Assembly: GCA_964187785.1 (NCBI GenBank)
Contig: OZ076409.1
Span: forward strand, 10,604,001-10,668,000
DNA length: 64,000 nt
Direction: 5' to 3'
DNA from: Amphiscolops sp. MND2022
Taxonomy: Eukaryota
The notes below the pieces were generated by a model, which was not told where the DNA came from, ran no database searches, and saw nothing but the letters and a program-made list of their open reading frames with translations. Position 1 is the first letter of the stretch; every line of letters starts with the position of its first letter. The translations under genes and the position numbers were made by a program. Positions 39,212 to 60,918 of this stretch are shown here, piece after piece.

Positions 39212-39212
39212 T

Positions 39213-39385: not shown

Positions 39386-40648
39386 CGTCCTTGTCTCAAA
39401 ATGTTATTCGTGGGTTGCACTTCAGAACGAGTGACTAATTGGTGTTCAGTGGTGATCGCCGTGTCTGTAGTAATTCCATATCTGCGTGCAACTGCTCTAA
39501 ACACTTTGAAAACTAGGGGAGTTTGAGGTTTCTTGATCCGGACTCGAATTCTCGTCGAAGGGGTGGCTAAGGGTGAAGTTTTTCATTCAAAAACTTGGGC
39601 TTAGGTTCTGAGGGTTGTCTGCATCTCCACTGGAACTCCAGTGTAACTTGTTCATTGGCTCATAGACGTTTGAGTTGGTAGCAGACTTTGGACATAGGTC
39701 TATGAGTGGGAACCCTTCACACTAAATCATATCAGTCCTGGGAGAGTACTGGAGTACCAGCCATGTTTAAGTGTTAGAACTCACAGCGCATTAAAAACCA
39801 TCGTTAACAGATAAGGCTAGAGTGAAGTTGGGGAGTTTAGTATCACATGATCATTTCTGGGCATGAGTGGTACTTGCCAAACTCTGTCGGGTTGCTGTCA
39901 CCGGACTTCTATTCTGGAGTGGCATTCGATCGGGGATGGAAAAAATTAGGTCAGTCCAGGTGAGCGTGAAGCGAACGTACTCGCAAGTAGTCAAGCACAA
40001 ACCCAGTAGCTTCCTTGGTCACCTAAAACGGTAGGTTAACCTGTATACATGACTACATTATATTCTTTGTAACGTCTAAGTGAAACTTCCGCCAGCCTGG
40101 TGGCCGAAAACCAAAATTTCGTTCAACATATCGCACAAACATTGGCGAAGTTTTGAATATTAGTGGGAACGTGAAATCAGGACAGACAACCAAAAAGGGT
40201 GAAAAAAGAGTGACCCCAACACCCTGTAGACCCGTATTAACACACGCAAACCCCAGATATTTTGATATTGCTGAATATATTGCACCCCAACCAGAATATA
40301 CACCCAAAAATGCTAATTTGATCCGGAAACTCATAACCTTTGGAATACTTTATTCCCAAGCAAAGATGAAATCAAATCCCGTTATTTGTGATTCTCCTCA
40401 CGATATAAAAAAGGTTCTATGTTACAAAAATCATATTTTTCAAGTGTTGACGAGCAACTAGCGGTCGGGTTTTACGCGTACGCCACTGACTGTGATCTCT
40501 TCCAGAGTTTTTTTCACTTTTTCAGTATGGATTTTCCGACCTTCTCTCGAGTACAGCCTGTGCGCACGGTTATTCGAAGAGTTCCAATCTTTGATTTCCA
40601 TCGTAAAAACACTGAAAAAATTTGGGAAAGAGCAATTTTGAAGTGTGG

Positions 40649-40985: not shown

Positions 40986-41438
40986 AGAAAGTGGTTCTAA
41001 CATTCGATTGCATTTCACTGCGACTCATTTAAGAATAATGAAAACATGTGTTTACAAAGAATCAGAACTTACAACTACTGGCACTCTAGAGCAATTCACT
41101 GATAGCCATCATGAAACACCAATTACCAAAGGTGGAAACAAATTTGCCCCTTCTAATTCCTTTCCTACCGGTAGCAATCTAGGGTCCAATGGTGGACATC
41201 GTTTGAATAATTTAATTTCAAATTTTCGTTTGAAATTCAAAATAAGGCTTCATGCCGATATTCAGTGCACCTAAAAATGTTAAATCCACATAATTTCGTA
41301 AAGAGGTACTTCAAAGACTCATTAGCAATTGAAGTCGCTCATAAAATCCCGCTACTATTGAAGTGGCTATATAGGCAGTGTTGTAGAAAGAATATAGCTT
41401 AGCCAGAACAATCGAATTACAAAATCAGATCGTCGCGG

Positions 41439-43673
41439 TGTCGAACCCAACCGTGTGGGTCGGCTTTGAAGGACCTTTCGAGGTTGACTGTCGGTTTTCG
41501 GTGTCTGTCTTACTTATGACAGCCATCATTAAGTCCTTCAGTTGACTGAACTCATTCTGTAGTTCGTTTATCTTTCTCTCATAACTCTCTTTTATTTCAG
41601 ATAACTGAGACGAGATATCAGAAACCTCGTTGCTATCAGAGTCATTGGCAGAAGACTGAGCCATGTCTGGGTCCGTTTGAATGGGTGTTTCTGATGAGGA
41701 ACTAATAACTCTTCCGCTTCTGAGTTCGGTGCCTAGATCTGGGTTCATAGAGGTGAGAGAAAAGGAATTATGAGTGAAGACTGGATTCTGGATGATTTTC
41801 GATATATTTTACTATTTTGTGCCGTTATTCGAACTCAAATTCACTATTTCTGAACTTGAGATGTAAATGCGATGAGTTTTACAGTAAGACAAGGATACTA
41901 GTAAAGAATGAGAATAGTTAACGAGGATTAAGTAGAGTTCATCCAAATTTCATCGAATAGATATCAATCAAGAAATTACTCAGAGTTGTGAAGGTAGCGT
42001 TATTTACGATGAATAAGAGATATGTTTTCTAGTTCAAATCTGTCGTAATTCGTCCAACTGGACAGTAGCTAATCGCAATTTCGGTCTGTGTAAACTCTAA
42101 TGGCGGTCCAAAATACAGCAGTTCACGTGTCTTTTCGGGCTGGTAAGACGCTAAATCTCTTACCAGCCGACTCTTATTGGCTATTGCCAGTTGGTGCTAA
42201 TTGGTAAGTCACGTGACCGGTGTTGTGAACTGCCGCAAGTTGGCCAAACCACATGGTACATCTACATATGCTAATTATGACTAATCATCACTTTACAATG
42301 TCGCAATTGCCTGCACACAGTGTCATGGTTTCTATAGCAACTCAAATCATTCAATAATGTACTAATTTCAAGTCAAAACAGAGTAAGCTGCATCACAGGA
42401 TGAGAAAACGATGTTTTTCCAACTAATTCTAGCATTAAAATCAATACTTCAAAAGCAAAGATGGAAACGCGATGAATTCGTCAGAATATTTGCTGATTTT
42501 CAAGTCTAGTTTAGCTCTGGATGAAAATGCGATGAATGGTGGTCTTTTAGCTCGAAAATCAACACGATATGAACTGACGATGATAAAAGGATGAACTCGT
42601 CTTCAAAATGAATGATTTCCAGCACAATTTAAATCAACGATGGTAAAAGGATGAACTCTCCTCGAAAATAACTAATTTCCAGCACTAGTGAAATTGACGA
42701 TGAATTCAGGATGAATTCAGCCAATAAAACAGGTGAAACAGCTAATTCTGCAGTGAAGACAAATATACGATGACTTTAGGATGAATACATTCAATAAAAC
42801 AGCAAAATCTAATGAATGAAATTCCAACGATGGGTTTAGGATGAACTCAACTGAAAATTCGGCTAGTTCTAACGTAAGTCGAACTAGCGATGAATTTGCG
42901 ATGAACTAGTGATGAGTTAATCTAATAAAACAGATATCCAGCACTTCACTCTTTTTTAGGATGAATTAAGGATGTACTTTCTCATTTCTTGTAGTTTCTG
43001 TTCAGGACGATGAAATATAGATGTGTTATGCTCTTTTTAAGAAATGAGAAGCACATTGAAGGTTAATAATCACAAAACGACGATGAGTATAGGATGGCTT
43101 TCATGCATTTTAAAGTCCCGTGAGATCCGCTGATGGATCACTAAATAAAATCAAATATATGTCCCAAATTTTGTTCACCCGCAATCTTGGCGATGTGATT
43201 GCGATGAACCTTGATAATATAGCACCGTAATTTCACTAATAGATCAAGTTGTAGGATCACTAAGTCCGCTGATGGATTAGTGATGAACTTTCCTGAAATT
43301 CGTCACGACTACAAGTCCTGAGGCGAGGGAGCTAGTAGAAGTTACAGATTCCATTATTTCTACATCTCTCGGTCCAGTCTGACCGGAAGACTTCTCTCCC
43401 TTATCGTGACAAACCAATATTGAATAAGATAGCACATTAAAAGCTATTGGCAAGATCATTTGTGCGGACACCGGAATTAGAGCGCTCAGTATTAAGTAAA
43501 TATATATAGCTCAAACTCAGGGGGGATAGGGATTAAAGTACAAGTAACGTAGGGTTGCTCACAACCATGGCTCTTATTATATGACATCATATTGCCCATA
43601 TCTAAGTACATAAGACATAATATTTACATTACAAATATTTAGTAGATTATATTTCCATCATGCTGGCATGACA
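41439..43673 (-). repeat. 3' LTR of element C (2235 bp); includes a copy of the first 103 gag codons (ORF 41425-41748)
   Basis: Near-identical to 58485-60720 (5 substitutions and 1 indel spotted by eye); preceded on the minus strand by GGGGAG. Confidence 0.97.
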
Positions 43674-44199
43674 CTCCCCGGGGCGGGATTTGGACTGAGA
43701 GTGCAGGGACCAAATGCGCAGAGGATGGTTGTCTCGGCGTTGGCTTCGACTGATCCTTCGTTTGGTTGGGGAGAAAATGGCCTTCGTTAGTTCTGAATTG
43801 GCATGTCCTTCGTTTGTTCTGTCCTGTGAGAGCTTCTCTGAGAAGAGGACCTTCGGTAATCGTCTTTTCTGGCATCATCCTGGGTGATTTCGGTTAAAAT
43901 TTTCGACGCGGCAACTCTAATTCTTGGTCCATCGAATGTCCGCTGACCTGCATTTTATTGGTTGTCATGCTTTTGACGGGAGTTTCGGCTGGTTATTTTC
44001 GGTAGAAGCTGATTTCTCGGAGAAAAGTTTCCCTCCAAAACGCCTACGCTGAGTAAACAATTCGATTAGCTTCACTGACAAATTGGCAGCGAGTCAGGGA
44101 TGAATGAACGATGAATTGTTTGCTCAGCGAGACACTGATGCTGTTTAGCGGAATGGCTGGCGCCGTTACTTGTTTACTCGCGATGAAAGGAGATGAATC

Positions 44200-44284
44200 G
44201 TTGCCATAGCAACTGTCAAAAGTTACTTCCGCTGCTCGACTTTTGAGTGAAAGAGAAAAGAGATGAATTCGTCGCCATAGCAAC
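44200..44284. promoter_or_regulatory. Two RFX X-box-like palindromes upstream of the antisense gene
   Basis: GTTGCCATAGCAAC (44200-44213) and GTCGCCATAGCAAC (44271-44284). Confidence 0.55.
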
Positions 44285-44797
44285 TGTTGCTCGATCTGAT
44301 TGGCTGAGACTGAACTTATAACTGAAGGAAAATACAACCGGTTGTCAGCAGCATTCTCATCCATAAATCATCCTCCATTCAAGTCGGTTTGAAAATCGCC
44401 ACGATTTCCTTTGCGCGTTTCCGCTCAACTTCGTCGGTATAGATCTGAGACTGGCAGCTGTCAACAAATCAAATACTTGAAGTTTTTGTCAAGTCCTGGG
44501 AGGGGACGATCCATTTTCAGAGAAGGCTTGAGTTGGTTGTACTGGGAAGAAAAGTGATGTCAGTATTTGAAATCGGAGAATTTTCATCGATTTTTCATCT
44601 TCTGAATTCAAGTATTTGATTAACATGGCATTCAAGCTGCGCCGCTTTTTGAAATCTTCTATTGAATTTGTTCTTCTGTAATCATGGTTGATCAGGCCAT
44701 TTAATTACTGATCAAATTCTCTGCTTCTGGATTCTTCGATTTCTTTCCTTCTTTCACCGTCTTCCATTCTTTTCAGATTGTTTTGCAATTTTTCGCG

Positions 44798-47700
44798 ATG
44801 TCGGATATCAACTCCATCTATTCGTTACCGGAGACCGAGGCCACAGAAAGTAAGTGCACTATTTTTTCTCTTCTTCACAAACGGGCCGGGGAATAATTAG
44901 GAATTGAAGGCGTGTCTTGGTTTTAGCGGACTCCGTTCACTCTGTCGGCATAATTTCCGAACTGACTACTTTGCAGACAGTTCCGCCTCAAGATGCTCCG
45001 ATCCCTGCAGCATCTCACGCACCTCAGTATCAACCTGAGCAGCAAACTGAACAGGCCCCTAACGTCCCGTATCTTCCGCAGTGTAAGTACTATCCTTCCA
45101 TTCTTCAGTTCAGTCTTCGAATCCCTCATATCTCATCCTTACTCTGTCCAGTAGCTGACTCCTTTTCGTATGGTGTTTCAGACCACTACCCCTGGTATGC
45201 TTCCCTAGGCAGCATCACCTTCGGGTGGTATGACCGCCACATGCGGGACATGCTGCGGGATAGCATCCAGCAGTACAGTGAGTTTGTCAATTTCCTTTTC
45301 ACTTCTCTAGGCTATCGTCCGAACACTCCGATGTGATTCCGATGTAAACATCTCATCTGCATGTAGTGTCCTTTGCGGTCGATTACCCATGTAATTCACC
45401 TTCGAGATGAATTTAGGATGTGTCATGGACATTCACAGCTCTTCATGACTGACTCGCTGTAAATCCCATTTTTGAAGATGAGTTTTGGATGTATTCTTCT
45501 CCGGTTTTCTTTCTTCGCGCGGCGTACGCGCTCTTTCTTCTCTTATCGTCGTCGTCCAGTAACTGTTTCTTCTTTCAGGCCCCACACCGATCCACGCACC
45601 AAGGCCTCGTCCCATCAGCTATTCCGTAGGAGTAGGGACGAGTGATTTCGCCGCAACTAGTGCTGATGCTAGCACTCAAGGAGGGCCTCCTCAACTTGAC
45701 TTGTCCTCGTTCCTTCAGGACTTGTCATTCGGGAGTGTAAGTTCTCCTGTCAGGCAGGCGCCAGTGTCTGTACTGTCGCCAGTGCTGAGGGGTTCTTTCG
45801 CCGCTAGTAGTCCTCCTCCTGCTCGTATCACTCTCGACGCTGCTGTGAATGCTGTTGTCGATTGCGTGGATGCAGTCACCGATGCCGTTGTCGATACCTC
45901 TGATCGAGCAGTCCAGGCCGTTGTGGAAGTCAGTGAGTCCTCCACCTTCCATGATCCTCCTGTTGAGGAACCTGTCATCGTTGCCTCTTCTTCTGTTCCT
46001 GCCTTTTCAGTCAGCGGCACTGATACACTTGGTGATGCTTCCGTGAGTACTGCCGGCGGTGCTGAGACCCTACTTGAAGTCCCTGGTGACTTCTCGTCCG
46101 ACAGCCTTCTGCCTGCTGAACCTGACCGAGAATCTGCTTCTCCCAGTGCTGCTCTCATGTCGACCGTGGCTTCTCCCATGGGACCCAGTCTACTGGATAG
46201 TGATGACGAACCAATCGCGTCCCGTCTGCCAGGTTAACTAAACAGCTTTAAACTGGTGAAGTATCTGATCAGTAGATTTTTCATTCATTTCCTTCTTCGC
46301 TTTTGCTTTCACTAGCATTTTTCACGTTTTTCTTCTTTTCTATCCATTTTTCATCGTTCTTCTGTTTTCACTATATGGTTTTCTGCAGTTTTCCATTTTC
46401 CATCACATTCTCATCGTCAAAAGTCGTTGAACAATAGTTTTCGCTCTCTAGTCCTTTTTAGAAATTTCATCTCTTTTACATCTTTAAAATTTTCTCTTTT
46501 CGGTTTTCGCTATTTGTCGGTGTTTTCTTTTCAGTTTTCATCTCTTTTTCATCGTTAAGTTGTTTTCGCTCTAAAATATCTCAATTTTTGGTTCAAAGTC
46601 GTTCTATTTATCTCTTTTCCATCGTTCAAGTTTTTCATTCTTTAAGGTTTCCATTTTTCATTCTGGTGGTGTGCAAAATGCATCTCTTTTTCATCTTTTC
46701 GTTTTCTTCGTTTTTCGCTTATATTTCCTGATGAAAATATTATTTTACATCATTTTTTCATCACTCCGGGTGACTTTTGGAAGTTTGCGGTGGTTTTTTC
46801 ATTTTTCAGTTTTTAAAGATTATTTTAAGATGATCTTGGAATTTTGTGGGAACGTGGTCGTTTTTAGTGGATGTGCTATGTGTTGGCATGTGATTATTTC
46901 TGTTTGTAGGGCGAAAAGTGATCAAGTCATGGTGGTTTTCTCATGAATACTGTGGGCTTGCACTGGGCTATGCACGAAGTCATCAATCGCGGCTATCATT
47001 CGTTCGATGTTTACTGTGCAAGCGTGATATCAATGTTGGCAGCCGTGGTATCACTACTTTCATGGAGCATTGTCGTGGGCTCCGTCACCATCGTTTGGAC
47101 TGTCTGATTCGTTTGTTTCGGGATTTACCGTTGCGGCGACGCGACGGGTCATTGATGAGTAATGAAGAGAGTGTGGAGTGTAGGAGCAGCCTGGGCGGTG
47201 CAATGGTGCCGTTCATTGAGACGTGCCCCTCCTTTAGTGTACTGGAGGTGTTTGAGTTGGAAGCAGCTGGACGACCTGTGTGGGGGGACGAGGAGGAAGA
47301 GGATCTATTGTGTGAAAAGACGGTGCATCTGTTCGTGTGCCTGGTTATTGACTCAATCTATCGTGGGTGTCAGTTCGCCAGCGTAACGAGTTTGTGGGAG
47401 GTGATGGTTGCGTCAGAGCCGCAACATGCCTCTCTTTTCGGTGTTACTTGCGAAGTGAATGACGTGATGGTAATTCGTATTTCTTTTTGTTTTTTGTTTC
47501 ATGAAGGTTCGTGTAGATGGAAAAAAAATACATTTAGTGGGTGGTTTTCCATAGGTAGTTTTGAAGCTTGGGTAGGGGGGATTTTCAACTATTAATTGTG
47601 TCGGGTTATTTTTAAGCGGATAGTGAATTAATGTATAGTAAAGTTGATGTTTGTTTTTAGAGTGTGGTTCTACTGAGTTTGTGGCCGTACGCGATGAAGA

Positions 47701-49575
47701 GGCTAATCACTCTGTGGTCTAACTGTGGGTTCAGTAGCTTTCATGTGGCTGTTGGGCAGGGGCGCGTGACTGGCACGGTCACAATGTGTTCTCTAGAAGG
47801 GATCAGTCAGTACTGTGTCTTCAGTTTTTGTCTGTCTCAGGATTGGGAAAAACGAGTTGTCACGTGGATGATTAACATGTGGTGTTGTTTGCTTGGAGAA
47901 CCTGTTCCACTTGGACTGTGTTGCGATGCGTTGCCACAGCTGGGTGGACTGTTCCAAGCCGCCACTGGCGTTGGGTCACTGGAGTTGAAGACGCTGTCAT
48001 TGTGTGAGATCAGTCGGACAATTGTGGACGTGGGAGGGCGGGCGCTCGGCGGGACTGATATTCATGTGGTGCTGAATCATCTGCAGAAAAGACTGAAAGG
48101 ATATGTCAGGGATCCTCTGTTGTTGAGCTGCCCTCATCTGTTGCAGGTCGGTGTAGTCTTCCGCTTTTATTTGAGTGTTACTATGAGTTGTACTCTTTGT
48201 CTGTTTCTGTTGTTTGTATATTGGTAGTAGTTTGTATTGTAATATTTTGTTTTATCTATGTGGAGCTTGTTATGTTTTGTTTAGGCGATTTTATCCGGGG
48301 AAGTCTACGTGTGGACTCTTGCTGATGTGTGCGATGAATTACGTGCCAATTGGGCAGAAGTGCTGTGTCTAGTTCGATTCGCTTCGGGAGACGGGCCAGT
48401 AGATGCGTTGGATCTTACTTTGAGGGTGGAGTTCGGGATCCCAATCAGGCTCCGGGCACTTAGTATGGTCTATCGTGCTTGTTAGTATGTTGTATACTTA
48501 CCGGGTGGGAAGTTTCTGTAGTTGGCCGTTTTTACGTATTCGAGTGTTTAATCAATTCGCATTTTTCGGGAAGGGAACGGGGGGGGGGTTAGTCCGATTA
48601 TTTACTGTGTATAGAATTGTTGTGTTTTTCATTTCAGTAGTGACGTCGTACGAAAAGAGTTTCGGGTCTTCATCATTGCGGAGTTGCTACTGGGCGATCG
48701 AGAGTGCATTCTTTGTGAAACGCCTGCTGACTCTACTGGTTGACGAAGAGAGCCTGCCCACTGATCTGGATATCCGTGGGTGGTTGTTTGTGGATGTAGA
48801 CAGTTATGTTGTGTCAGCGACTAAGTTACAAGCCCTTATCGCGAGTTTCAGCTCGGATGAGAATTTGACGGAAGATGTGGCTGTGTATGAAGAGGATGTG
48901 TCCCGAGTGCCTAATTTCTTATTGTCTATCGTCAGGAACGTATTATTGCTACCAGGGATTCGTGACGATCTTGCTTTCGTGCGAAGTGTCTTTAGTTCAC
49001 CCAGACTGGTTTGTGTGGCGGAAACTGATCTTGTGGCGGAAATTCGCAATTTTACTGGTTTACTTGTGGAAATGGGGCGGATCAGTTTAGTCGAACAGGA
49101 TCGAATGGAGCTCGGATTTCTGGAATTTATAAGGGCTTTTCGGTGCGAGCCTAGGCCAGCTGGGGCGACTGCCGAGTATTCAGCCGTTGATCTGTTGCGT
49201 TGCTGTTCCAGTCGCGGGTCACAGAGTCTGTTACAACTTGTCTTTTGCCTGGGAGGGGTGGTGCAGAGCACTTGCAATACCATATGCGAAGGGATCGGGC
49301 ACCTGCCGAGCGATGTCATGAGCTGTGTGTGTGCAGTAATCTCTGGTTATTTGTCTGCTAATCATGTGCGAAGTTACGGTAGTGTCAGTGGGCCACTGAT
49401 GGAAGAAGTGATGGAGTCGCACAGAAGGCTCGTCGATCTATCAGAGATTACAGAGGGCATGTTGTGGGACGACGTCGGTATCGTGGCTGGGGAAGATTAT
49501 CGTCTCCAGTTATATGCTAGTCTTGGTTACGATGTGACCGGGGAGCGGGCTGCCAGTCCCGAGATTGGAAACTGA
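44798..49575 (+). CDS. Antisense accessory gene of element C; predicted exons 44798-44849, 44927-45082, 45152-45277, 45579-46232, 46910-47469, 47661-48146, 48285-48480, 48638-49575 (1055 aa if exon 4 joins exon 5; otherwise a 330-aa gene ending at 46237 plus a second gene)
   Basis: All seven introns are GT-AG with pyrimidine-rich acceptors and matching phases (1,1,1,1,0,0,1). No in-frame stops. C-x2-C-x16-H-x5-H zinc finger in exon 5. AATAAA at 49676. Confidence 0.8.
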
Positions 49576-49675
49576 CTTATTAACTGTTTATGTTGTTCAT
49601 TGTTTTGCTATATAATTTGTTGTATTTACATATTAGTGTAGTTATTCATATGTTGGGAGACCCATGAAAAAGGTC

Positions 49676-49681
49676 AATAAA
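49676..49681 (+). terminator. Probable polyadenylation signal of the antisense gene
   Basis: AATAAA 100 nt after the TGA at 49575. Confidence 0.55.
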
Positions 49682-52198
49682 TGGAAAGCACAGTAATGAC
49701 CATAGTGCGAATGATACAAATCCAGATGCTACGGCGGAAAGATCGGTAGTAGTGTGTTTACAACATTAGTTATTTTGGTGCCCAACAGCTGTTTTTCTTT
49801 TGAGTTGTTAGTGATAGTTACAGAGGATATTAAGTACGTGTAAATCAACAAGTTCGTCCAACAGTTCACTTGAAGCATTGTCTTCGGTATTTTTGTATCA
49901 TAGATCATCGGTCGCGCATCGCGTTTATGGTGTTCATCGTTATTACATCTCGTGGTAGTGTAAGTAACTCGTCAGCGTTTGATCTTTGATTTTTCATCTC
50001 ATTTTCATCACGTTTTCCTCGGTCGACCAAGCGACGTCGTGAAAACTGTTTTTGTCATCGTTTTTACATCTTTCGGTGCGTCAGAAACATTGCATGTTGT
50101 TACATGTGGTTTTTCTACGTATTTCATCATTTTTTCATCTTGCGTTTGATTTGAGCACTTTCGTGCGTTTTTTGCTATAGTTCATCGTTTTTGCATCGCA
50201 AGTTTGTCTTGTTCAGTTTCTGCTCATTTTGCTGTATAGTTCATCTTCTTTTCATCGTGCGTTTGAAATGTACGGATTTTTGCGTGTTTTCGATGTTATT
50301 TGGCTATAACGTAAGCGGGGGTTGCATTTTTCGTGTCCGGAGGAAATTTTTATTAATATTGCGGTGTTTCGGATTGTTTTCTTCATGTATTTTAGCGTTA
50401 TACGGTTATAACCATTTGTCGTGTTTTTGAATTTGCATGAATTTTATGGTACATGTGTTTTAATCATCGTCGTCATGTTTCTAATTTGTCAACTTCGGAA
50501 CGTCATCGCATGTATTTTTAGTTCGAATTCTGGTGACCGCCGCTTGCGTGGCAGTCGAAAATAAGTTCACTCAGCAGTGGTACTGATAGCCTGTAGGCGT
50601 GCAAGGTACTAGTGGCTTCAGTCCAGAGCTGGGTGAGTGGAGCTGCTCCGCTCCTTTCAGATAAATGGAATCTCGTAGTTTCGGGCTATATATAGTCTAT
50701 ATGTCATTTTTTCGGTCGGTTGTTTGCCATTATTCGTCGAAATGGGTTTGTCCATTTGACGGTCAGTCCGATCAATCAATGTGATTGACATCTACGGTTA
50801 TGCATGTGTCCAGTTTTAGACTATCTGTTTCTTGTATTTGCATGTATGGATGGTTACATGATGTGCTCTTTTAAATGGGTTGCCCCATTATTGACATGTC
50901 GTTATATGTTCGGTGGTAGTTTCATGTTTTCTAATTTTATTTTCGTTCATTTGGACAGGGCTTTGTCGTCACAAAGCCCCTACAAAACTAACTGAGAATC
51001 CACTAGCCGCTGGATAACCAACGCAGCAAGCTTCATCCGAATATGGTTGTGAGCTCCCCGCCTCAACTAACCAGCACTCTTTTCAGAGAAATGCCAGCCA
51101 GCACGAAGGAATGATTTTAGTTTTTCGGTAGGGGTGTTTTGTATTTTATGAGCTGATGTTTACTGGGGGGTGCTCACTCCTTTATTAGTTTTGTAGGTGT
51201 TTCGTCAGTTCTTATATTTTGCATGTAAGTTAGTAGACTTCATGTATTTTCGATTGTTTGTTTCATTTTTATTCGTCTAGGTTCGGATGGTTTTGGTGTG
51301 AATTGCATATATTATCTCATTCATTTTTGAACGGTACATGTATATTTCCGTGCGTTGCTCATTTGTATTGCATGTAGTTTGGAATTGTTAATTGCTTTCG
51401 TGACGTCATTGATTTGGCAGGTCTTTGAACTTTACATGTATTGATCATTTCATTTTTGTGTCGCATAATTTCGTTGCATGATTCGAAATAAGGTCGGTTG
51501 TTTTTTATCGTTTCGTGGAGTTACATGTTGTTTGCGAATTAGCTGATTTATTGTGATGTTATGTTGATGGTGTTTCCCATCACAAAGAGGTGTTGGTAAG
51601 TCATTTAATATTTTCGAATTTCCATTTAGACTAAATTCATCGTTTTGACATCCTCCAGCGAAGCTAGAGTATTGTGTCAGGTTAACGATAAATTCGGTCG
51701 CGATTTGATGGTAGTGTCCATCACAAATTCATCTCGTTAATTGATTTCATGTAATTTATGAATAATTGGATCGAGTTCATCGTTATTTCATCCTCTGGCC
51801 GAGCTAGAGTCTTATGATAGCATGAACGTGAGTGCGTTCGCATTCTGATGGTATTTCCCATCTCAAATGCATCGTTAGTAAATATTGCATGTTGATTGGT
51901 CTATTTTTTGACTGAGTTCATCACTTTTTCATCTCTCGTGTGTCTGAGTTAAATTTTCGTGTGGTTTCATCCTTTTTTCATCTCAAATTTTGTGTGTTGT
52001 TTTTTCTGGTTTTTTGATCGTTTTTCATCCGTTTTACATCTCGTTTTGTTTGTATGCGGTTTTCATGTGATTTTTAGTAACTTTTCATCCATTTTACATC
52101 TTCATGTACTTTTTAAGTTAAAATTGCATGTAATTCGTTCGTTTTTGTGATTTGTTCATCCGTAACACATCTCAGATTTAAAGTGAAACTTTTCTTGG

Positions 52199-55100
52199 CT
52201 AAATCGTTACGTCTATTTTGTTGGTCTTTCTCAGTGCGTTTCTAGCTGAAGTAATCTCATGAATGAGGAAGTCTGGATACGTTTTCGGTGTAGGGTTCTC
52301 ACGTAACCTGTACCTACTTTGATTTGATCTAGACGGTCTAGAACTCATCCTTTCTTCATTTTCGTTTTGCGTGTTTGTCTGTTGTGACTGGTTTTCGTGT
52401 TGTTCGTCTCTCAGAGGTACTCTTATCCTACTTTCATCGCGGGGAGGCGGTAGAATAATTTCTTCTCGCGTTCCAAATCTAACTGTAGGTGGTCTAAAGT
52501 TGTTGTGATCAGTTTCTACTTGCTGATAGTCTATCCTCGTGGTTATTTCTGGTGGAATTACTTGTGGAGTGTGTTGTTCTTGTACCCGAGGAATTGTTTC
52601 TTCTGAAGGCTCTTTTTCGACCAAGTCTTGATCTAGATTGTCATTCTCATCCTGATCTACTTCGTCGGTCATCGGAATATTCGAGTCGAAAATGTCCGTG
52701 TCTTCAACCCTTTCGGTATCTGGGTAGAGATGTTTGGACATGTTGATGTCGTCAATCGGAAATTCCGGTTTGAACAATCTCAGTCGCATGCGATGTACGC
52801 ACTGAGTTTGGTGTGTGCCTACTTTGCGGATGATGTAGTTGCTATCGGATAGCAGTTTAATCACCTTGTACGGTCCTTTCCAATGGAAAGTTTTAAACTC
52901 TTCTTTGCTTCTCTGAGAGTCGTACTTAGGGTCTAGTAGGAACACAAAGTCATTCACCTTCAGTGGCTGTGCTCGTGCTTTTCTATCATAGTACGTTTTG
53001 TACTTGTGATAGGCGGAAATGATGTTGTCTAGATTGTCTCTGAAGATAAAATTCATTTTGTCTAGAATTTCGTTCACGTCTTTGCACTTTGTTTCAGCCG
53101 GTTTGTTTGCGTTTCGGAATTGCAGATCTAGTGAGTTGTATGGTGTTCTTCCGTGGAAAATTTCGGTTGGTGAGCATTTCAGTGAATCATGATACGTTGT
53201 GTTATGGGCCATGATTGCTATGTCGACATAGCGGTCCCATTGTGGTCTGTCTGCGTTTACACTAATCTTAAGGATCTTTTTCAGTTTCGCGTGCGTTCTC
53301 TCCACCATGCCTATTGTCTGCGCGTGCTTTATCGTGGCATGGGAGATGTGAATATTAGCCGCTTTCGCGATTTCAGACAGAAGTTCAGCCGTGAACGCCG
53401 TGCCTTTGTCGGTCAGAATGTGTTTGGGCACATACGCGTGTTTTGTGAAGATCGACAGTAGTCCTCTGACTACGGAATGTGTGTCAGGTCTCTTCAGCGG
53501 AACGGCGAACAGGTAGCGCGAAAAAACGTCAACAGCCGTCAGAATGTGTGTAAAACCGTTCGATGCCGGGAGTGGACCAACGATGTCTATTTCCAGCAGG
53601 TCTTCTGGTCCGTCGCACGGGTCGTAGATTTTTTGTAACGGTGGACGTAGTTGCGTTTCTTTTACACTTTTAGACTTCATGCAGTTTTCACATCCGTCAA
53701 GGACTTTTTGAACTTTATAGGCTAAGTTAGGAGAGTAATATCTTTTACGAAGTTCATACAACATTTTCTTTAAACCAGGGTGTCCTTGTACCGGGCTGTT
53801 ATGTAGAGTCCTAATTATTTTCAAAATACAGTCTTCAGGAACGACTAACTGCTTATGAGACTCTAGTCCCGTGTGGTCAAAAAACTGTCTGTACAAGACA
53901 CCGTTTACAACTTGTAGGCGTTTTCGATTTTTGTACAACTTTTGAAAAAACTGGTCTTGCATGTTAACTGGGTGTTGCAAAATTTCAGTACCTTCTAAAA
54001 ATCTAATCATTTTTTGGATAACCCAGTTATTTTTCTGGACCTGAATTAGATCGATCCCCTCGGCGGGGCTAACCTGACTCATTACCGGGTGTGATAATGA
54101 TACTTTACGGATGAATTGCGAGAGTTGAATCGGCTCGTCCACGTCTGTGAGGCGGTACGTCAGATGGTTGTCAGTCGCGAAGTCATCTGAGGCCGCAGTT
54201 CTCTCACAGTTGGTGAACTTCATCCCTTTCCCATCGTCATGAGCCACGTCAGTGCCAGTTGCCAATTTCATCTCTTTGACATCCTTCTGGCGTTTGCATC
54301 TGAGTGGTTCGCTCGCGGGGAAGTAATCAGGCTCGTCTTCCTCCTGTTTTGGTGTACGGGAGGCGATGTCGATCTCGATCCTGTGAATTGGAATAGTATC
54401 AGTCAATTTTAAATGTACACGGTCTTCAGGTCTAATCTCAAGCCGAGATAAGTAATCCGCTGCGGGATTTTCAACTCCTGGAACATGTGCTAATAGAAAA
54501 TTGAACTGAAGGGTTTGATCGCAAAAGTTCCAAAGTGAAGGCGGGATATGCTTCGCCTGGAAAAATCTAGTCAAGGCCTTATTGTCAGTCATAACAATGA
54601 TGGGTTTTTTCGCACCCCACAAAATGTGGCCAAATTCATCGAATGCAAAGTGCATAGCTAAAAACTCTTTGGCATACATTGTTAGAGACATCTGGCCGCC
54701 CTGAAATTTCTTAGAGCCAAATGCAACAGGGGCGTATGTATGTTTGACTGACGGGTCTGCATAATCCTCGATTAACAACACATAGCCTGCAGCGTGTTCG
54801 CTGGCGTCACACATGATTACCAGTTGTTTATCTGGTAATGGCAATTTCAGAGACACTTTTGTTGCTTTTAACAAACTTTCATTAATTTCAAAAATAGCAT
54901 CTTTATGTTGTTGGTTCAGCTTGAAAGGGACGTCTTTCTTGATGAGTTCCTGTAAACAACAAGTTTTATCAGCTAGACGGGGAATGTAAGACCTGTAAAA
55001 GTTCACAAAACCAAGATAACGTTGCAACGCTTTCACTGAATTGGGGGGTTTCAACTTCGTTAAATAGTCTGTTACGCGTTTTTCAATGGGAGCAATACCA

Positions 55101-57292
55101 GTGCTAGAAATGGTTTTTCCCAAGTACTCAATTTGTTTTTGTCCAAATTCACATTTACTCATGCTAAGTTTAAGACCAGCTTTTTGCAATTGTTGAAAAA
55201 CAAGTTCAAGGTTGGTAATCAATTCTTCGGGTGAGTGTGCTGCAATTCCAATATCGTCAACGTATTGGGCACAGCGGTCCGCTTTGACCAGGGGGTCCAA
55301 ATACTCACGGATTACTCCTGTAAATGCTGACAAAGAACGATTAAGACCTTGTGCTAGACGTAAAAATGCAAAAGTTCTAGATCCAAAATTAAACGATAAC
55401 AGTTGGACAGATTGCTCATCGGCCATTGGAATGCAATGGTAGGCCTGGGAACAATCAAGTTTGCAGAAGTACTTTTTCCCGGCCATGTGTTGGGCAGCGT
55501 CAGCAATTGTTGTTACGGGATGATTGTGCTCACCGTAATCGTTTTTGATCAGGTGGTTTATTCTTCTCAAGTCAACTAAAATCCTCAATTTACCATTAGG
55601 TTTACGCTGAGCAAATATCGGGGAAGAGTATTTGCTGTGAGGCAAAGTAGTTATAATCCCGTACTCTTGCATTAGGGCTAACTCCACGAGCAAATCGTCC
55701 TTCAAATTTGTCGGAGTCGGGAGACTTTGTGAATAAACAGGTTCTTCATGTTGAGGTGTTAACTTAACTTTAAAATCAGTGTTCATGCCAATATCAAAAC
55801 GGTGTCTAGCAAAAATGGAGTTGTACTTTACCAGCAACTCCTCTACCTGTAACCGTTGAGACGGAGTAAGAAGCGAGTCGTCCCAGTTGAAGTTCTTCAG
55901 GAAGTTCATCCGTTGTTCATCGGATTGGGACGGGTCAAGCTTCTCGAGCTCTCGCAGTGCCAGAATCTCATCATAAATCCGTCGCTCAATTGCGTTGAGT
56001 TTGTCTGGCTCACTGCACGTCTCGGGAGTTGGGTACCACTTGGTTGACTTCATTTCAGGGTTCACAAACAGTTGGTTGATCACTGCTTCGGCTTCATCTG
56101 GATACTTGGTGATCAAGTTCAAGTGTTCCACTGGCATGGGCGTGATGTTTGCCGCCTGGTGTGGTGTCGGGATGCGAAAGTGTGCCAGAGTGGTGTTGGC
56201 TTCAAGTGTGTACGTGTGGTTGTTTGGGTTGGTGACCTGGATTGTCGTCTTGCCCTCGTCTAGGTCAACCAAAGCTGGAGAAACAAGCAAACACGTCTTT
56301 CGCATGAATCCAGGTGAGCCCTCAACTGTACCAGTTGTAAGTGAGATGTCCGCGTCACTGTGGACCTGTATCATCACTTGATGGAGAGGAGGGATCACTG
56401 TTCTAGTACTGGAACACAAATCAATTAAACCAGTTTTGAATCTGTTGTTCTTTTGCTGTCTAACTTGCATGGACATCATGTGATTAGGGAAGTGGACAAG
56501 GTGGTTTTTGATGTCTAAGTTGACTGAGTACTTTTCAAAAAAGGACATTCCAATTAAAATTGTTCCCATTGTTGGAAGGATTAGGAACGTTTCTTCGAAT
56601 ACTTTTCCAGCAACGTAAAATCTAAGTAAGACTTGCTTACGCACTGGGACTAAGTTCCCGTTTGCTATTTGAATTTTGAAATTCGGAGGGGGGAATTCTT
56701 GAAGGATGGCTTCTGGATGAGCCGTTGTTATTTTTCGCAGTTCGGCTTCAGACATTGCACTTTGTATTGCGCCTGTGTCTAAAAGTGCGCTGTTTTCGTA
56801 TTTGTCAAACTGAAGAGGGACGTACAGCATTTTATCTTTCTTGTTTAAATGTAAAGTGGGACTGAGAACGTGAATTTCTGTTTTAATTGCATGTTTTTTA
56901 GTTTTTGAAACGTTAATACTACTCTGTTTTGCATGTTTTTTAATACTAAGCCGTTTGTCGATTGTTGAGTGTGAAGTCGAGTCGTCGTCTAGATGGTGGG
57001 TTTCCATCTCTTTGGCATCTTCCACCTGCCTCATGGTGTTTGGTTGCCAGTTCATCGTTTGTTCATCGTTGATTTCAGCGAGTGGAGAAAAACGGCTGCC
57101 GTTGAGTTGACTTGCATTTCTCATCGCTTTTTCATCGTTGGAAAGTCTTCGCTGATAGACGTCGTCAGCTTTTGGTCGATTGTCCAGTGAAGGCTGCCAT
57201 TTCTTCATTGGACGGTCGTGTGTAGTCGGTTGAGTCGAAAGTCGTTGGTCGCGCGTTGTGTTTCTAGCGGGCGGAAATCGTGGCGGAATCAA
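52199..57292 (-). CDS. pol: Pol of element C (PR, RT, RNase H, IN), probably expressed by -1 frameshift from gag
   Basis: LLDTGA, YVDD, CDASEHAAG, H...H...CENC, DIVGP/TDKG/VER, WKGPY; uninterrupted 1697 codons. Confidence 0.97.
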   Translation of the reverse strand: MIPPRFPPARNTTRDQRLSTQPTTHDRPMKKWQPSLDNRPKADDVYQRRLSNDEKAMRNASQLNGSRFSPLAEINDEQTMNWQPNTMRQVEDAKEMETHHLDDDSTSHSTIDKRLSIKKHAKQSSINVSKTKKHAIKTEIHVLSPTLHLNKKDKMLYVPLQFDKYENSALLDTGAIQSAMSEAELRKITTAHPEAILQEFPPPNFKIQIANGNLVPVRKQVLLRFYVAGKVFEETFLILPTMGTILIGMSFFEKYSVNLDIKNHLVHFPNHMMSMQVRQQKNNRFKTGLIDLCSSTRTVIPPLHQVMIQVHSDADISLTTGTVEGSPGFMRKTCLLVSPALVDLDEGKTTIQVTNPNNHTYTLEANTTLAHFRIPTPHQAANITPMPVEHLNLITKYPDEAEAVINQLFVNPEMKSTKWYPTPETCSEPDKLNAIERRIYDEILALRELEKLDPSQSDEQRMNFLKNFNWDDSLLTPSQRLQVEELLVKYNSIFARHRFDIGMNTDFKVKLTPQHEEPVYSQSLPTPTNLKDDLLVELALMQEYGIITTLPHSKYSSPIFAQRKPNGKLRILVDLRRINHLIKNDYGEHNHPVTTIADAAQHMAGKKYFCKLDCSQAYHCIPMADEQSVQLLSFNFGSRTFAFLRLAQGLNRSLSAFTGVIREYLDPLVKADRCAQYVDDIGIAAHSPEELITNLELVFQQLQKAGLKLSMSKCEFGQKQIEYLGKTISSTGIAPIEKRVTDYLTKLKPPNSVKALQRYLGFVNFYRSYIPRLADKTCCLQELIKKDVPFKLNQQHKDAIFEINESLLKATKVSLKLPLPDKQLVIMCDASEHAAGYVLLIEDYADPSVKHTYAPVAFGSKKFQGGQMSLTMYAKEFLAMHFAFDEFGHILWGAKKPIIVMTDNKALTRFFQAKHIPPSLWNFCDQTLQFNFLLAHVPGVENPAADYLSRLEIRPEDRVHLKLTDTIPIHRIEIDIASRTPKQEEDEPDYFPASEPLRCKRQKDVKEMKLATGTDVAHDDGKGMKFTNCERTAASDDFATDNHLTYRLTDVDEPIQLSQFIRKVSLSHPVMSQVSPAEGIDLIQVQKNNWVIQKMIRFLEGTEILQHPVNMQDQFFQKLYKNRKRLQVVNGVLYRQFFDHTGLESHKQLVVPEDCILKIIRTLHNSPVQGHPGLKKMLYELRKRYYSPNLAYKVQKVLDGCENCMKSKSVKETQLRPPLQKIYDPCDGPEDLLEIDIVGPLPASNGFTHILTAVDVFSRYLFAVPLKRPDTHSVVRGLLSIFTKHAYVPKHILTDKGTAFTAELLSEIAKAANIHISHATIKHAQTIGMVERTHAKLKKILKISVNADRPQWDRYVDIAIMAHNTTYHDSLKCSPTEIFHGRTPYNSLDLQFRNANKPAETKCKDVNEILDKMNFIFRDNLDNIISAYHKYKTYYDRKARAQPLKVNDFVFLLDPKYDSQRSKEEFKTFHWKGPYKVIKLLSDSNYIIRKVGTHQTQCVHRMRLRLFKPEFPIDDINMSKHLYPDTERVEDTDIFDSNIPMTDEVDQDENDNLDQDLVEKEPSEETIPRVQEQHTPQVIPPEITTRIDYQQVETDHNNFRPPTVRFGTREEIILPPPRDESRIRVPLRDEQHENQSQQTNTQNENEERMSSRPSRSNQSRYRLRENPTPKTYPDFLIHEITSARNALRKTNKIDVTI

Positions 57293-58794
57293 AAACCCTG
57301 ATTTATGTCTTCATCAGAGTAGGTTTCTTGATCTTCTTCTTCGGTGACTGCTTGCATAGGGTTCATCGGCTTTTGTTGTCGTTTTAAGTCTTGTCTTCTA
57401 GTTCTGTTGTCATCTTGTGAATTCGTTGCGTATGGAATCTTTCCATATGCAGAACTGCTTTCTTTAAGGACACGTCGTCTGCAATCCCTTGCTGAGTGGC
57501 CTGTGTAACCGCAAATCTGGCAGACCAATTTTGGATTGTATTTCGGCTTATCTGGATCGGCTGCTTTCTTCATTGGGATTGCATCCTCCTTCTTTATGCC
57601 GTTCGCTTCGTCTCGTTGTCGGGCGCGACATTCCGTTTTGCGGTGTCCTGTCTTTCCGCAGTAGAAACATTGTCCTTCAAATCGTTTTCGTTCTGTCGGT
57701 TGTGCGGTCGTCGTTGTTGTTGTAGGCTTCGTCGTTGTAATCGTAGGTGGTGCTGAGGAGGTGACCGCGTTGAATGGTTGGATTGCCGTAGGTGGCGCGA
57801 CGTACTGCTGGTACTGGTATTTTCGCATTAGGTAGGTTTTGATTTCCTCTGGGGAGCTCTCTTCTTTGTTTGCCATGGTGAGCTCTTGTTGAATCTCGAC
57901 TGGCAGTTTTCCAAACAGGAACATTTTGATTATTCTGTCGGCCTCATTGCCGAAGGCTTGTTTGGCAGTCTTCTTGAGATTTTTGAGGAAATCGCCGAAT
58001 GTTTCTGTTGTGGGATCATAGCGTGCTTGATCCCATTTGTAACGGGCCACTTCCTTTAGATCCTCTTTTGCAAATTCTTTTCTGAAGAGGTCGAGTACGT
58101 CCTTTAGTGTTGTCATCGGCGTTATCTGGATGGATTGCCAGTATTCTATTGCGTCATCTCTCAAAAGGCTTTGAAAGAAGTGTAGTTTGTTCTCCTCGGT
58201 GATTTTGTTGGCAAGCGGGCTAAGGTGGTTGTGGAGAAGGTGTTCAAATTCGACGAATTTGTCTTTTTGGCCTCTGAAATTTGGCACGTGTGTCTGCAGA
58301 AGCTTCGTGTTGGTGGTTGTGTTTTTGATCCGTTGGGGGATCGTCTCGATTGCATTGAGCAGTCGTTCCTCATTGCTTCTGGGGGTTGATTCTCCTTCGT
58401 CTGAATCGTCTTCTTGGTAACTTCTGAAGTTGGTGAAGCTGGTGGTCGGGCGGTTGGAGCGGGTTTCTGTAGCTCCTGTCACCATGTCGAACCCAACCGT
58501 GTGGGTCGGCTTTGAAGGACCTTTCGAGGTTGACTGTCGGTTTTCGGTGTCTGTCTTACTTATGACAGCCATCATTAAGTCCTTCAGTTGACTGAACTCA
58601 TTCTGTAGTTCGTTTATCTTTCTCTCATAACTCTGTTTTATTTCAGATAACTGAGACGAGATATCAGAATTCTCGTTGCTATCAGAGTCATTGGCAGAAG
58701 ACTGAGCCATGTCTGGGTCCGTTTGAATGGGTGTTTCTGATGAGGAACTAATAACTCTTCCGCTTCTGAGTTCGGTGCCTAGATCTGGGTTCAT
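57289..58794 (-). CDS. gag: Gag of element C, 501 aa, two CCHC knuckles; start codon inside the 5' LTR
   Basis: CFYCGKTGHRKTEC and CQICGYTGHSARDC; capsid-like HVPNFRG...LHFFQSLLRDDAIEYW; N-terminal coiled-coil-like segment. Confidence 0.96.
   Translation of the reverse strand: MNPDLGTELRSGRVISSSSETPIQTDPDMAQSSANDSDSNENSDISSQLSEIKQSYERKINELQNEFSQLKDLMMAVISKTDTENRQSTSKGPSKPTHTVGFDMVTGATETRSNRPTTSFTNFRSYQEDDSDEGESTPRSNEERLLNAIETIPQRIKNTTTNTKLLQTHVPNFRGQKDKFVEFEHLLHNHLSPLANKITEENKLHFFQSLLRDDAIEYWQSIQITPMTTLKDVLDLFRKEFAKEDLKEVARYKWDQARYDPTTETFGDFLKNLKKTAKQAFGNEADRIIKMFLFGKLPVEIQQELTMANKEESSPEEIKTYLMRKYQYQQYVAPPTAIQPFNAVTSSAPPTITTTKPTTTTTTAQPTERKRFEGQCFYCGKTGHRKTECRARQRDEANGIKKEDAIPMKKAADPDKPKYNPKLVCQICGYTGHSARDCRRRVLKESSSAYGKIPYATNSQDDNRTRRQDLKRQQKPMNPMQAVTEEEDQETYSDEDINQGF
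57292..57298 (-). promoter_or_regulatory. -1 ribosomal frameshift slippery heptamer G GGU UUU
   Basis: CAG GGT TTT TGA at the gag end; pol lies in the -1 frame; GC-rich sequence follows. Confidence 0.8.
58473..58484 (-). other. PBS of element C, tRNA-Leu-like, inside gag coding sequence
   Basis: ...TTCGACA|TGGTGACAGGAG directly after the LTR; one mismatch to the tRNA-Leu(CAG)-type TGGTGTCAGGAG. Confidence 0.65.
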
Positions 58795-60720
58795 AGAGGT
58801 GAGAGAAAAGGAATTATGAGTGAAGACTGGATTCTGGATGATTTTCGATATATTTTACTATTTTGTGCCGTTATTCGAACTCAAATTCACTATTTCTGAA
58901 CTTGAGATGTAAATGCGATGAGTTTTACAGTAAGACAAGGATACTAGTAAAGAATGAGAATAGTTAACGAGGATTAAGTAGAGTTCATCCAAATTTCATC
59001 GAATAGATATCAATCAAGAAATTACTCAGAGTTGTGAAGGTAGCGTTATTTACGATGAATAAGAGATATGTTTTCTAGTTCAAATCTGTCGTAATTCGTC
59101 CAACTGGACAGTAGCTAATCGCAATTTCGGTCTGTGTAAACTCTAATGGCGGTCCAAAATACAGCAGTTCACGTGTCTTTTCGGGCTGGTAAGACGCTAA
59201 ATCTCTTACCAGCCGACTCTTATTGGCTATTGCCAGTTGGTGCTAATTGGTAAGTCACGTGACCGGTGTTGTGAACTGCCGCAAGTTGGCCAAACCACAT
59301 GGTACATCTACATATGCTAATTATGACTAATCATCACTTTACAATGTCGCAATTGCCTGCACACAGTGTCATGGTTTCTATAGCAACTCAAATCATTCAA
59401 TAATGTACTAATTTCAAGTCAAAACAGAGTAAGCTGCATCACAGGATGAGAAAACGATGTTTTTCCAACTAATTCTAGCATTAAAATCAATACTTCAAAA
59501 GCAAAGATGGAAACGCGATGAATTCGTCAGAATATTTGCTGATTTTCAAGTCTAGTTTAGCTCTGGATGAAAATGCGATGAATGGTGGTCTTTTAGCTCG
59601 AAAATCAACACGATATGAACTGACGATGATAAAAGGATGAACTCGTCTTCAAAATGAATGATTTCCAGCACAATTTAAATCAACGATGGTAAAAGGATGA
59701 ACTCTCCTCGAAAATAACTAATTTCCAGCACTAGTGAAATTGACGATGAATTCAGGATGAATTCAGCCAATAAAACAGGTGAAACAGCTAATTCTGCAGT
59801 GAAGACAAATATACGATGACTTTAGGATGAATACATTCAATAAAACAGCAAAATCTAATGAATGAAATTCCAACGATGGGTTTAGGATGAACTCAACTGA
59901 AAATTCGGCTAGTTCTAACGTAAGTTGAACTAGCGATGAATTTACGATGAACTAGTGATGAGTTAATCTAATAAAACAGATATCCAGCACTTCACTCTTT
60001 TTTAGGATGAATTAAGGATGTACTTTCTCATTTCTTGTAGTTTCTGTTCAGGACGATGAAATATAGATGTGTTATGCTCTTTTTAAGAAATGAGAAGCAC
60101 ATTGAAGGTTAATAATCACAAAACGACGATGAGTATAGGATGGCTTTCATGCATTTTAAAGTCCCGTGAGATCCGCTGATGGATCACTAAATAAAATCAA
60201 ATATATGTCCCAAATTTTGTTCACCCGCAATCTTGGCGATGTGATTGCGATGAACCTTGATAATATAGCACCGTAATTTCACTAATAGATCAAGTTGTAG
60301 GATCACTAAGTCCGCTGATGGATTAGTGATGAACTTTCCTGAAATTCGTCACGACTTACAAGTCCTGAGGCGAGGGAGCTAGTAGAAGTTACAGATTCCA
60401 TTATTTCTACATCTCTCGGTCCAGTCTGACCGGAAGACTTCTCTCCCTTATCGTGACAAACCAATATTGAATAAGATAGCACATTAAAAGCTATTGGCAA
60501 GATCATTTGTGCGGACACCGGAATTAGAGCGCTCAGTATTAAGTAAATATATATAGCTCAAACTCAGGGGGGATAGGGATTAAAGTACAAGTAACGTAGG
60601 GTTGCTCACAACCATGGCTCTTATTATATGACATCATATTGCCCATATCTAAGTACATAAGACATAATATTTACATTACAAATATTTAGTAGATTATATT
60701 TCCATCATGCTGGCATGACA
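58485..60720 (-). repeat. 5' LTR of element C (2236 bp)
   Basis: Direct repeat of 41439-43673; TATATATA at ~60547-60555; contains the GATG-N7-GATG array. Confidence 0.97.
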
Positions 60721-60918
60721 CGCGGGGTAAAAAACCAGGATGTTACAAAATTGACTGCATATTTGTGAAAAACTTGGTGTTGATAGCAGGCGGTGACCCA
60801 TCCTGATTGTCAACTTGATTGTAACCATTTTATAGTAACTTTCATTCCACCTGTTGGTTTCTTTCACAAATATTTAACAAGATATTGTTTGAAACAAATA
60901 TCTTCTTCGGCGAGCCTT

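Follow-up and report, generated by a model that had tools for sequence, protein, structure and literature searches.

The 64,000-nucleotide stretch analysed here (the window) comes from the genome of Amphiscolops sp. MND2022 (GenBank assembly GCA_964187785.1, contig OZ076409.1, forward strand, positions 10,604,001 to 10,668,000). On its minus strand lies a Ty3/gypsy long terminal repeat (LTR) retrotransposon of 19,283 bp (41439-60721), along which a short bipartite word, CATC-N7-CATC, is repeated, its two four-base half-sites being separated by seven bases. Counting both strands, the window holds 70 exact sites (31 CATC-N7-CATC and 39 GATG-N7-GATG on the plus strand), and all of them fall inside this one element, within 41860-60331. 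An earlier note on this DNA had described about 60 copies blanketing the element; the element-wide distribution was borne out, and the number is 70. Purifying selection has preserved the eight core bases at ~53 distinct places per element copy, and comparison between related sequences firmly marks the word as a functional cis-element of a Ty3/gypsy clade. A conserved zinc-finger gene lies on the opposite strand of the same element, and its product is considered below as a candidate binder of the sites.

Structure of the element and positions of the sites

The two LTRs, at 41439-43674 (3' LTR, minus strand, 2,236 bp) and 58485-60721 (5' LTR, minus strand, 2,237 bp), start with TG, end with CA and are 99.73% identical over 2,237 aligned positions. 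The element is flanked by a 4-bp target-site duplication, GCGG, at 41435-41438 and 60722-60725, and a primer-binding-site-like sequence (TGG...) begins directly at 58484, going downward. The gag frame (57289-58854, minus strand) encodes two CCHC knuckles, matched by Pfam as zf-CCHC twice, and is followed by a pol frame (52199-57310, minus strand) with protease, reverse transcriptase (RT), RNase H and integrase in the gypsy domain order. Pfam matches on pol comprise RVT_1 (569-734), RT_RNaseH (826-930), Integrase_H2C2 (1157-1215) and rve (1235-1326), together with a weak protease match; in the ESM Atlas, pol matched sequences of mixed taxa (Oomycota, Chordata, Streptophyta, Arthropoda). The multi-block gene on the opposite strand is housed in an 8.5-kb region that separates the 3' LTR from the pol stop. 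The family LTR has at least 40 near-identical matches in the genome among 1,950 first-look candidates.

Each LTR carries 17 sites. Fifteen of these form an array of GATG-N7-GATG on the plus strand at 42399-43285, equivalent to CATC-N7-CATC on the sense strand of the element, with most sites 60 bp apart and a triple half-site at 42889-42914; the same array recurs on the plus strand of the other LTR at 59445-60331, corresponding to LTR positions 391-1277 of 2,237 bp in sense. A pair of oppositely oriented sites, 80 bp apart, is found near the gag-proximal end of the LTR (41860-41954, repeated at 58906-59000). Per LTR the earlier note had counted ~16 GATG-N7-GATG, which agrees with the 16 sites in that orientation and leaves out one CATC site on the plus strand; one of its site coordinates, 42461, should read 42460.

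The remaining 36 sites are internal, 29 reading CATC and 7 GATG on the plus strand. Three arrays, all given on the plus strand, account for 21 of them, fewer than the ~25 of the earlier note: five CATC-N7-CATC at 46401-46762, in the presumed intron directly upstream of the zinc-finger exon, seven at 49906-50256, downstream of the last coding block of the antisense gene, and nine at 51638-52171, immediately past the pol stop. A further six (44099, 44358, 44585, 45330, 45406 and 45477; span 44099-45491) are scattered over the 5' part of the antisense gene and the stretch upstream of it, and two isolated sites of opposite orientation occur at 50849 and 51555 (50849-51569, minus strand). Seven further sites, at 54221, 54269, 55907, 56705, 57005, 57053 and 57122, are embedded in the pol reading frame, so these seven are exceptions to the statement that internal sites occupy non-coding DNA.

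Some features of the element are recorded here in their own right. The gag frame remains open ~370 nt into the 5' LTR (58485-58854), across the primer-binding-site-like sequence; an ATG is created at the junction of the two, two earlier ATGs occur within the LTR, and an AATAAA at LTR position 2080 falls inside the gag frame. One copy at C2:1968981-1980575 has its LTRs just 6,358 bp apart. It retains both LTRs, the 5' region of the antisense gene and the region of the intron array (all but a middle part of ~1.1 kb was examined), and its internal span is too short for gag-pol and the zinc-finger exon.

Spacing, composition and genomic occurrence of the word

The number of sites expected from 100 dinucleotide-preserving shuffles of the window was 2.18 (standard deviation 1.43, maximum 7), versus the 70 observed. 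Across the whole window, each of the spacings n=0-6 and 8-15 gave 0-2 CATC and 0-5 GATG matches. Sites with one mismatch number 25 in the 17 kb of the element counted without redundancy and 36 in the other 44.7 kb, which is close to background, and almost all sites of the element are thus perfect. Base counts over 53 non-redundant sites extend the word to (A)nTT-CATC-nn-WWWTT-CATC-(G/T)(T/C), in which the seven-base spacer is A/T-rich yet variable; the half-site often reads CGATG. Gaps between neighbouring sites group at 48-49, 58-61, 67-71 and 79-83 bp, in steps of ~11 bp. The most frequent gap is 60 bp (9 of 39 gaps under 150 bp), which agrees with the ~60-bp distance given earlier.

A search of the genome (1.07 Gb) for two n=7 sites 35-60 bp apart returned 26,781 pairs (12,756 + 14,025), versus 200 (118 + 82) for a reversed control. 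The same paired search gave 1,193 pairs (480 + 713) at n=6 against 548 (348 + 200) in the control, and 5,873 (2,637 + 3,236) at n=8 against 142,661 (84,969 + 57,692). Behind the n=6 pairs are a satellite and unrelated CCATCGATGG-rich repeats, and nearly all n=8 matches listed are (CAT)n microsatellite; the enrichment is therefore specific to n=7, as the earlier note had anticipated. The first 100 n=7 pairs listed comprise a few tight clusters and one lone match near C1:2,854,603, and the three clusters inspected are copies or solo LTRs of this element clade. The n=6 control search also brought to light a dispersed repeat packed with CCATCGATGG palindromes (e.g. C1:6876704-6876778) and a satellite with a 32-bp period and CATCCATGATCATCCATGG units (e.g. 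C1:94808281-94809788).

Selection on the core bases

Cores that are fixed while spacer and flanks vary, and sites that are under selection, were two claims of the earlier note, and both are upheld by the comparisons that follow. Between units of the arrays, the flanks (44 positions, ungapped) are 34-37% identical, versus 26% in random windows of the same DNA. Because flank identity is that low, the array units are not recent duplicates; with perfect cores beside such flanks, and with spacers that vary, recent tandem duplication as the source of the arrays was ruled out. Tandem Repeats Finder (TRF) reported weak repeats of 58-60 bp in three arrays, with 72-78% matches and ~2.2-2.5 copies.

Core positions defined in the window element were checked against family B, as we call a sister family from this genome (C1:3066001-3086000). 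In the LTR, 126 of 132 core positions are conserved (95.5%), versus 72.4% of other positions and 65.5% of the seven-base spacer (Fisher p=2e-11). Conservation of the cores is complete in the intron array (40/40; other positions 79%), in the array behind pol (80/80; other positions 91%) and in gag-pol (56/56; other positions 93%), and reaches 51/56 in the array behind the antisense gene, where other positions stand at 70%.

A similar picture emerges within the family. Among 28 other copies of the LTR (96-100% identical), 18 of 3,696 core positions differ (0.49%), versus 1,203 of 55,570 non-core positions (2.16%) and 77 of 3,332 spacer positions (2.3%). The odds ratio for the core is 0.22, and core changes are ~4.4-fold rarer than changes at other LTR positions. 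This comparison is descriptive only, since LTR copies are not independent and a p-value from them would overstate the case.

Selection is also visible in coding sequence of a further family, family A (C1:930001-950000), whose pol is 72-74% identical to that of the window element at the nucleotide level. This family has 51 n=7 sites, versus 0-2 each for n=5, 6, 8 and 9, and four of the seven pol-embedded sites of the window element occur at aligned positions in it. At least five of the pol-embedded sites are located where pol is weakly constrained: three precede the protease, and two fall in the segment that joins RNase H to integrase.

The antisense zinc-finger gene

The gene opposite to gag and pol is read from the plus strand at 44705-49575, and an approximate model comprises the blocks 44705-44896, 44908-45336, 45563-46237, 46894-47595, 47661-48227 and 48424-49575. 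Splice junctions, scored from sequence only, appear clear at the borders of the zinc-finger exon and ambiguous at most other places. The zinc-finger exon (46910-47469, plus strand) is preceded by a polypyrimidine-AG acceptor ending at 46909, followed by a GTAAT donor starting at 47470, and encodes a finger of the form C-x2-C-x16-H-x5-H.

Amino-acid identity to family B and family A is 71% and 45% for the zinc-finger exon, 67% and 30% for the block after it, and 63% and 27% for the last block. The nonsynonymous divergence (dN) of the antisense gene is 0.2-1.0; the synonymous divergence (dS) is saturated in 6 of 8 comparisons, and dN/dS is 0.16-0.30 where it is computable. These values support a real coding gene under purifying selection, and to that extent the antisense zinc-finger gene of the earlier note stands, as a conserved coding gene with a CCHH finger (27-71% amino-acid identity).

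The fold predicted for the zinc-finger exon from an alignment of 26 relatives has a mean predicted local distance difference test (pLDDT) score of 80, exceeding 90 for residues 11-130; the model of the last exon is all helical, with a mean pLDDT of 55.6. The zinc ligands, together with a WF pair ~27 residues upstream, fit the ligand pattern of BED fingers, a pattern that is not exclusive to them, and classification as a BED finger is weak. A Foldseek search with the model of the zinc-finger exon returned nothing at E<=0.001, the ZBED2 and ZBED1 domains appearing at E 6.8-7.7. In Pfam, the antisense blocks matched no family besides a weak zf-BED; a transposase domain was not found in them, and no block matched Transposase_28 (PF04195) at E<=0.1. 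Relatives of the zinc-finger exon amount to 75 unnamed open-frame fragments among 1.8 billion representatives. Full-length annotated relatives were sought with both the last exon and the zinc-finger exon and none was found, and the ESM Atlas gave no usable match for the last exon.

Gene and word across related families

A small sample of families was compared, namely A, B, the window element itself (family C), family D (six loci), and a distant clade of the gene represented by six loci and one larger element, element F. Families A, B and C have 51, 56 and 70 sites per element, and family D has 8-10 sites per 3.4 kb in all six loci. The word is therefore present in all four families, whose antisense genes belong to one clade (zinc-finger exon 45-71% identical, 59% in the case of family D). 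In family D an array lies upstream of the zinc-finger exon, at the same place as in the window element.

In the distant clade, which is very abundant and typified by a protein designated P0064, the zinc-finger exon is 27-30% identical to that of the window element. P0064 is 100% identical to C4:55312673-55313422 of the same genome, with 3,364 candidates. CATC-N7-CATC is absent from all six loci of this clade and from the first 20 kb of element F (C4:55306001-55326000), whose pol shares 40-47% of its amino acids with that of the window element and in which the zinc-finger block alone is detectable among the antisense blocks. Element F has a word of its own: GACC-N4-GTCC has 11 matches in its first 20 kb, of which ~7 extend to GTAGCCC-N3/4-GGAC(C)-N3/4-GGTCC-N5-GGTGAAATT; these lie on one strand, at 12240, 12309, 16609, 16927, 18288, 18345 and 19566, counted within the sequence of element F. 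Genome-wide, the core pattern occurs 1,510 times (748 + 762) versus 6 (5 + 1) for the control. The residues between the two zinc-binding histidines read CRGLR in the window element versus WKGVE in P0064. Two clades with different fingers and different words are consistent with matched pairs of finger and word and do not amount to proof of them. Two further gypsy elements of the window (4550-14443 and 34438-~39560) lack the gene (best tblastn E 0.23) and contain 0 sites, as the earlier note had expected of families lacking the gene.

The gag-pol regions of families B and C are near-identical (pol 96.5% amino-acid identity, dS 0.14-0.19), whereas their LTRs (~72% at non-core positions) and antisense genes (dS saturated) are anciently diverged, and in a blastn comparison the block of high identity starts near window position 50854. 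This mosaic suggests recombination in which a module of LTR plus antisense gene may have been swapped between lineages.

What may recognize the sites

The sites occur in both orientations, their half-sites are one helical turn apart and the spacer is A/T-rich; from this combination we infer that two modules, seated on the same helical face, recognize the word in double-stranded DNA, and the cis-element is probably a docking site for a protein on DNA. The LTR arrays run opposite to 29 of the 36 internal sites. In family A both orientations are interleaved, and seven separate places carry an inverted double site composed of GATG-N7-GATG, 9 nt and CATC-N7-CATC; the offset is always 24 bp, and the arms agree at 11-14 of 15 positions (e.g. 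3611-3649, 11203-11241 and 11708-11746, counted within the family A sequence).

In the mechanism that we propose, the word (TT)CATC-N2-WWWTT-CATC would dock a protein on double-stranded DNA, two recognition modules being placed on the same face of the helix by half-sites one turn apart over the A/T-rich spacer, and the arrays would load many protein molecules along the entire element. The likeliest binder, and the least certain step, would be the CCHH (BED-like) zinc-finger protein that the element itself encodes in antisense. Such a self-recognition module could set the chromatin or transcription state of the element, with activation, VANC-like anti-silencing or copy-number control as possible outcomes. 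That the antisense protein binds the sites, in a self-recognition module setting transcription or chromatin along the whole element, is put forward tentatively, at somewhat less than even chances. It is doubtful that the system goes as far as a marking system of the clade's own, in which the spliced antisense zinc-finger protein would coat every copy through ~50 bipartite sites and maintain transcription of the family or protect it against silencing, leaving host genes untouched, in convergence with VANC of plants.

Several observations weigh against binding by the antisense protein. Although the site has two parts, the protein shows just one finger, and its affiliation to BED fingers is uncertain: the Pfam zf-BED profile (PF02892) scores 18.2 bits against the zinc-finger exon (E=0.0025), below the cutoff of 20.6, zf-BED is matched at E<=0.1 in 2 of 26 aligned relatives, and a profile search of solved structures gave ZBED2 at E=1.4. 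The top rows of VIA-align are U1-type RNA-binding fingers (TUT4, TUT1 and SF3A, Z 3.5-4.2, none with Z>=5). The shared orientation of 29 of the 36 internal sites is also predicted by a role at the RNA level. The earlier note had asked whether families with divergent antisense proteins carry different words, and this held for element F in so far as its composite motif is different; dense or tandem arrays were absent from the two pieces scanned, as was an LTR pair within 26 kb. As element F is without a dense array, a cognate array is not a general rule for the antisense gene family. Finally, because related families inherit gene and word together, finding both may reflect a single event, and it may leave room for a host factor as the binder.

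Binding by such a host factor, a transcription factor or insulator protein for which the arrays would be accumulated enhancer or boundary modules while the antisense protein does something else, is somewhat unlikely. The evidence for selection applies to it equally, the densest array is found in the LTR, the seat of promoters and enhancers, the word has stayed constant while the zinc-finger exon diverged to 45% identity, and common descent could explain the co-occurrence with the gene; but sites spread over the whole element, in an intron, behind pol and in pol linkers, are not needed for a promoter role alone, and among the genome matches listed the clusters are few and tight, the three inspected being copies or solo LTRs of this clade. 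If the word instead acted in RNA, bound in the genomic or antisense transcript by the Gag knuckles or the antisense finger for nuclear export, packaging or stability, then the common orientation of most internal sites, the RNA-binding structural neighbours of the finger and the inverted double sites of family A, whose arms (11-14 of 15 positions complementary) could form hairpins, would find an explanation. With LTR and internal arrays opposed to each other and the sites of family A interleaved, however, no single transcript reads all sites one way, the Z scores are too low for assignment to a family, and the window element has no inverted site pairs within 40 nt, which makes this alternative improbable.

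Another protein of the element, integrase or Gag, might dock on its DNA copy for nuclear import, tethering or integration, and sites along the whole element would suit a coating of the cDNA, as would the two CCHC knuckles of Gag and the H2C2 integrase finger in pol. This is very improbable: gag-pol is near-identical between families B and C and pol keeps 72-74% nucleotide identity with family A, the two other gypsy elements of the window share these domains and have 0 sites, and we know of no precedent for docking of integrase or Gag on such arrays. The chance that the sites are functionless, tandem-repeat remnants that share short cores by chance and are carried along by a successful element, is slight. 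The 60-bp periodicity and the weak TRF repeats would fit a tandem origin; perfect cores next to flanks of 34-37% identity, a variability of the cores that is 4 to 5 times below that of adjacent bases, among copies as well as between families, sites at homologous coding positions across families, and 70 sites against 2.2 expected all speak against it.

Comparison with known systems

The nearest parallel to recognition of the element by its own antisense protein is the VANC/VANDAL system of Arabidopsis Mutator-like elements, in which an element-encoded protein acts on arrays of YAGTATTAY-type motifs, and in which motif binding and loss of methylation have been demonstrated (Hosaka et al. 2017, PMC5735166). 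Going by the available part of that paper, the two systems share an element-encoded protein, a short motif nearly private to its own family, dense arrays, often in one orientation, in non-coding regions and in introns of the element's own genes, a tandem-repeat ancestry of the arrays, and related families that differ in their targets (PMC5735166). They differ in that VANDAL is a plant DNA transposon whereas the element described here is a Ty3/gypsy LTR retrotransposon, with a bipartite motif and with some sites in coding sequence. A relation in sequence was not found, Pfam having given only the weak zf-BED match for the antisense blocks, in searches in which VANC itself was not a query. The parallel drawn by the earlier note thus holds for the architecture of private, dense motif arrays and not for homology, the element classes being different, and is best read as an analogy.

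Plants and fungi have for decades been known to harbour LTR retrotransposons with antisense genes. Plant Retand, Grande and RIRE2 elements have additional antisense open reading frames (ORFs) between pol and the 3' LTR (Vicient 2025, PMC11963269), and the fungal element Boty has the antisense ORF brtn (Vicient and Casacuberta 2020, PMC7264820); in the portions of both papers available to us, the function of such ORFs is stated as unknown. The gene described here has the same placement, its blocks at 44705-49575 (plus strand) lying between the 3' LTR and the pol stop, and it is conserved in families A and B, with the zinc-finger exon found also in family D. As far as those portions go, the resemblance extends to the Ty3/gypsy affiliation, a long region between pol and the 3' LTR, a conserved and possibly DNA-binding antisense gene, and family-specific tandem arrays in that region (PMC11963269, PMC7264820). 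The plant proteins carry Transposase_28, of which there is no match here, and unlike the Retand and Boty genes the present one has several exons and a CCHH finger. The same portions of these papers contain no account of one short motif that LTR, intron, post-pol arrays and coding linkers have in common and that is conserved from family to family. The literature located on BED zinc fingers, antisense genes and gypsy LTR retrotransposons, judged in part from listings, holds no description of such an element or of this family.

Arrays of binding sites for zinc-finger proteins and clustered short motifs are known from other systems as well. The gypsy element of Drosophila is an LTR retrotransposon in which about a dozen sites for the zinc-finger protein Su(Hw) are arrayed at short distances; there, unlike in the arrangement proposed here, the binder is a host protein, the 5' untranslated region holds the single array, and a different, non-bipartite motif is used. 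BED binders read a word of 5-6 bp with one short finger and draw their specificity from clusters of words; BEAF-32 and DREF bind clustered CGATA-type motifs, and hAT transposases bind subterminal repeats. The half-site of the present element, often CGATG, comes near to CGATA, but the BED membership of its finger is weak, zf-BED being below cutoff, and no transposase domain was found.

With a sharply defined and strongly selected 15-bp word near a conserved zinc-finger gene, the question of the binder can be reduced to a simple binding experiment. Should the antisense protein indeed bind the element that encodes it, VANC-type self-recognition would have a second, independent example and its first among retrotransposons, a compact pair of protein and site would be obtained, and the long-unexplained antisense ORFs of gypsy elements would gain a function. 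If the binder is a host factor, the at least 26,000 adjacent site pairs in the genome, which imply tens of thousands of sites, would mean that the spread of one clade has distributed tens of thousands of sites for a single factor, which would matter for the regulatory landscape.

Other elements in the window

The window contains an assembly gap of 200 N at 17398-17597. A second gypsy-type element occupies 3-14443 on the minus strand and has giant open frames. One of these, of 3,297 amino acids, encodes a gag knuckle, protease, RT, RNase H and integrase; the frame that comes after it, of 1,519 amino acids, has no Pfam match and runs off the window. A small gypsy-like element of ~5 kb, with 0 CATC-N7-CATC, lies on the minus strand at 34438-39560. 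It has repeats of at least 175 bp that are 95% identical and 4,775 bp apart, and contains split frames for RT, RNase H and integrase together with a DUF7041 gag-like frame.

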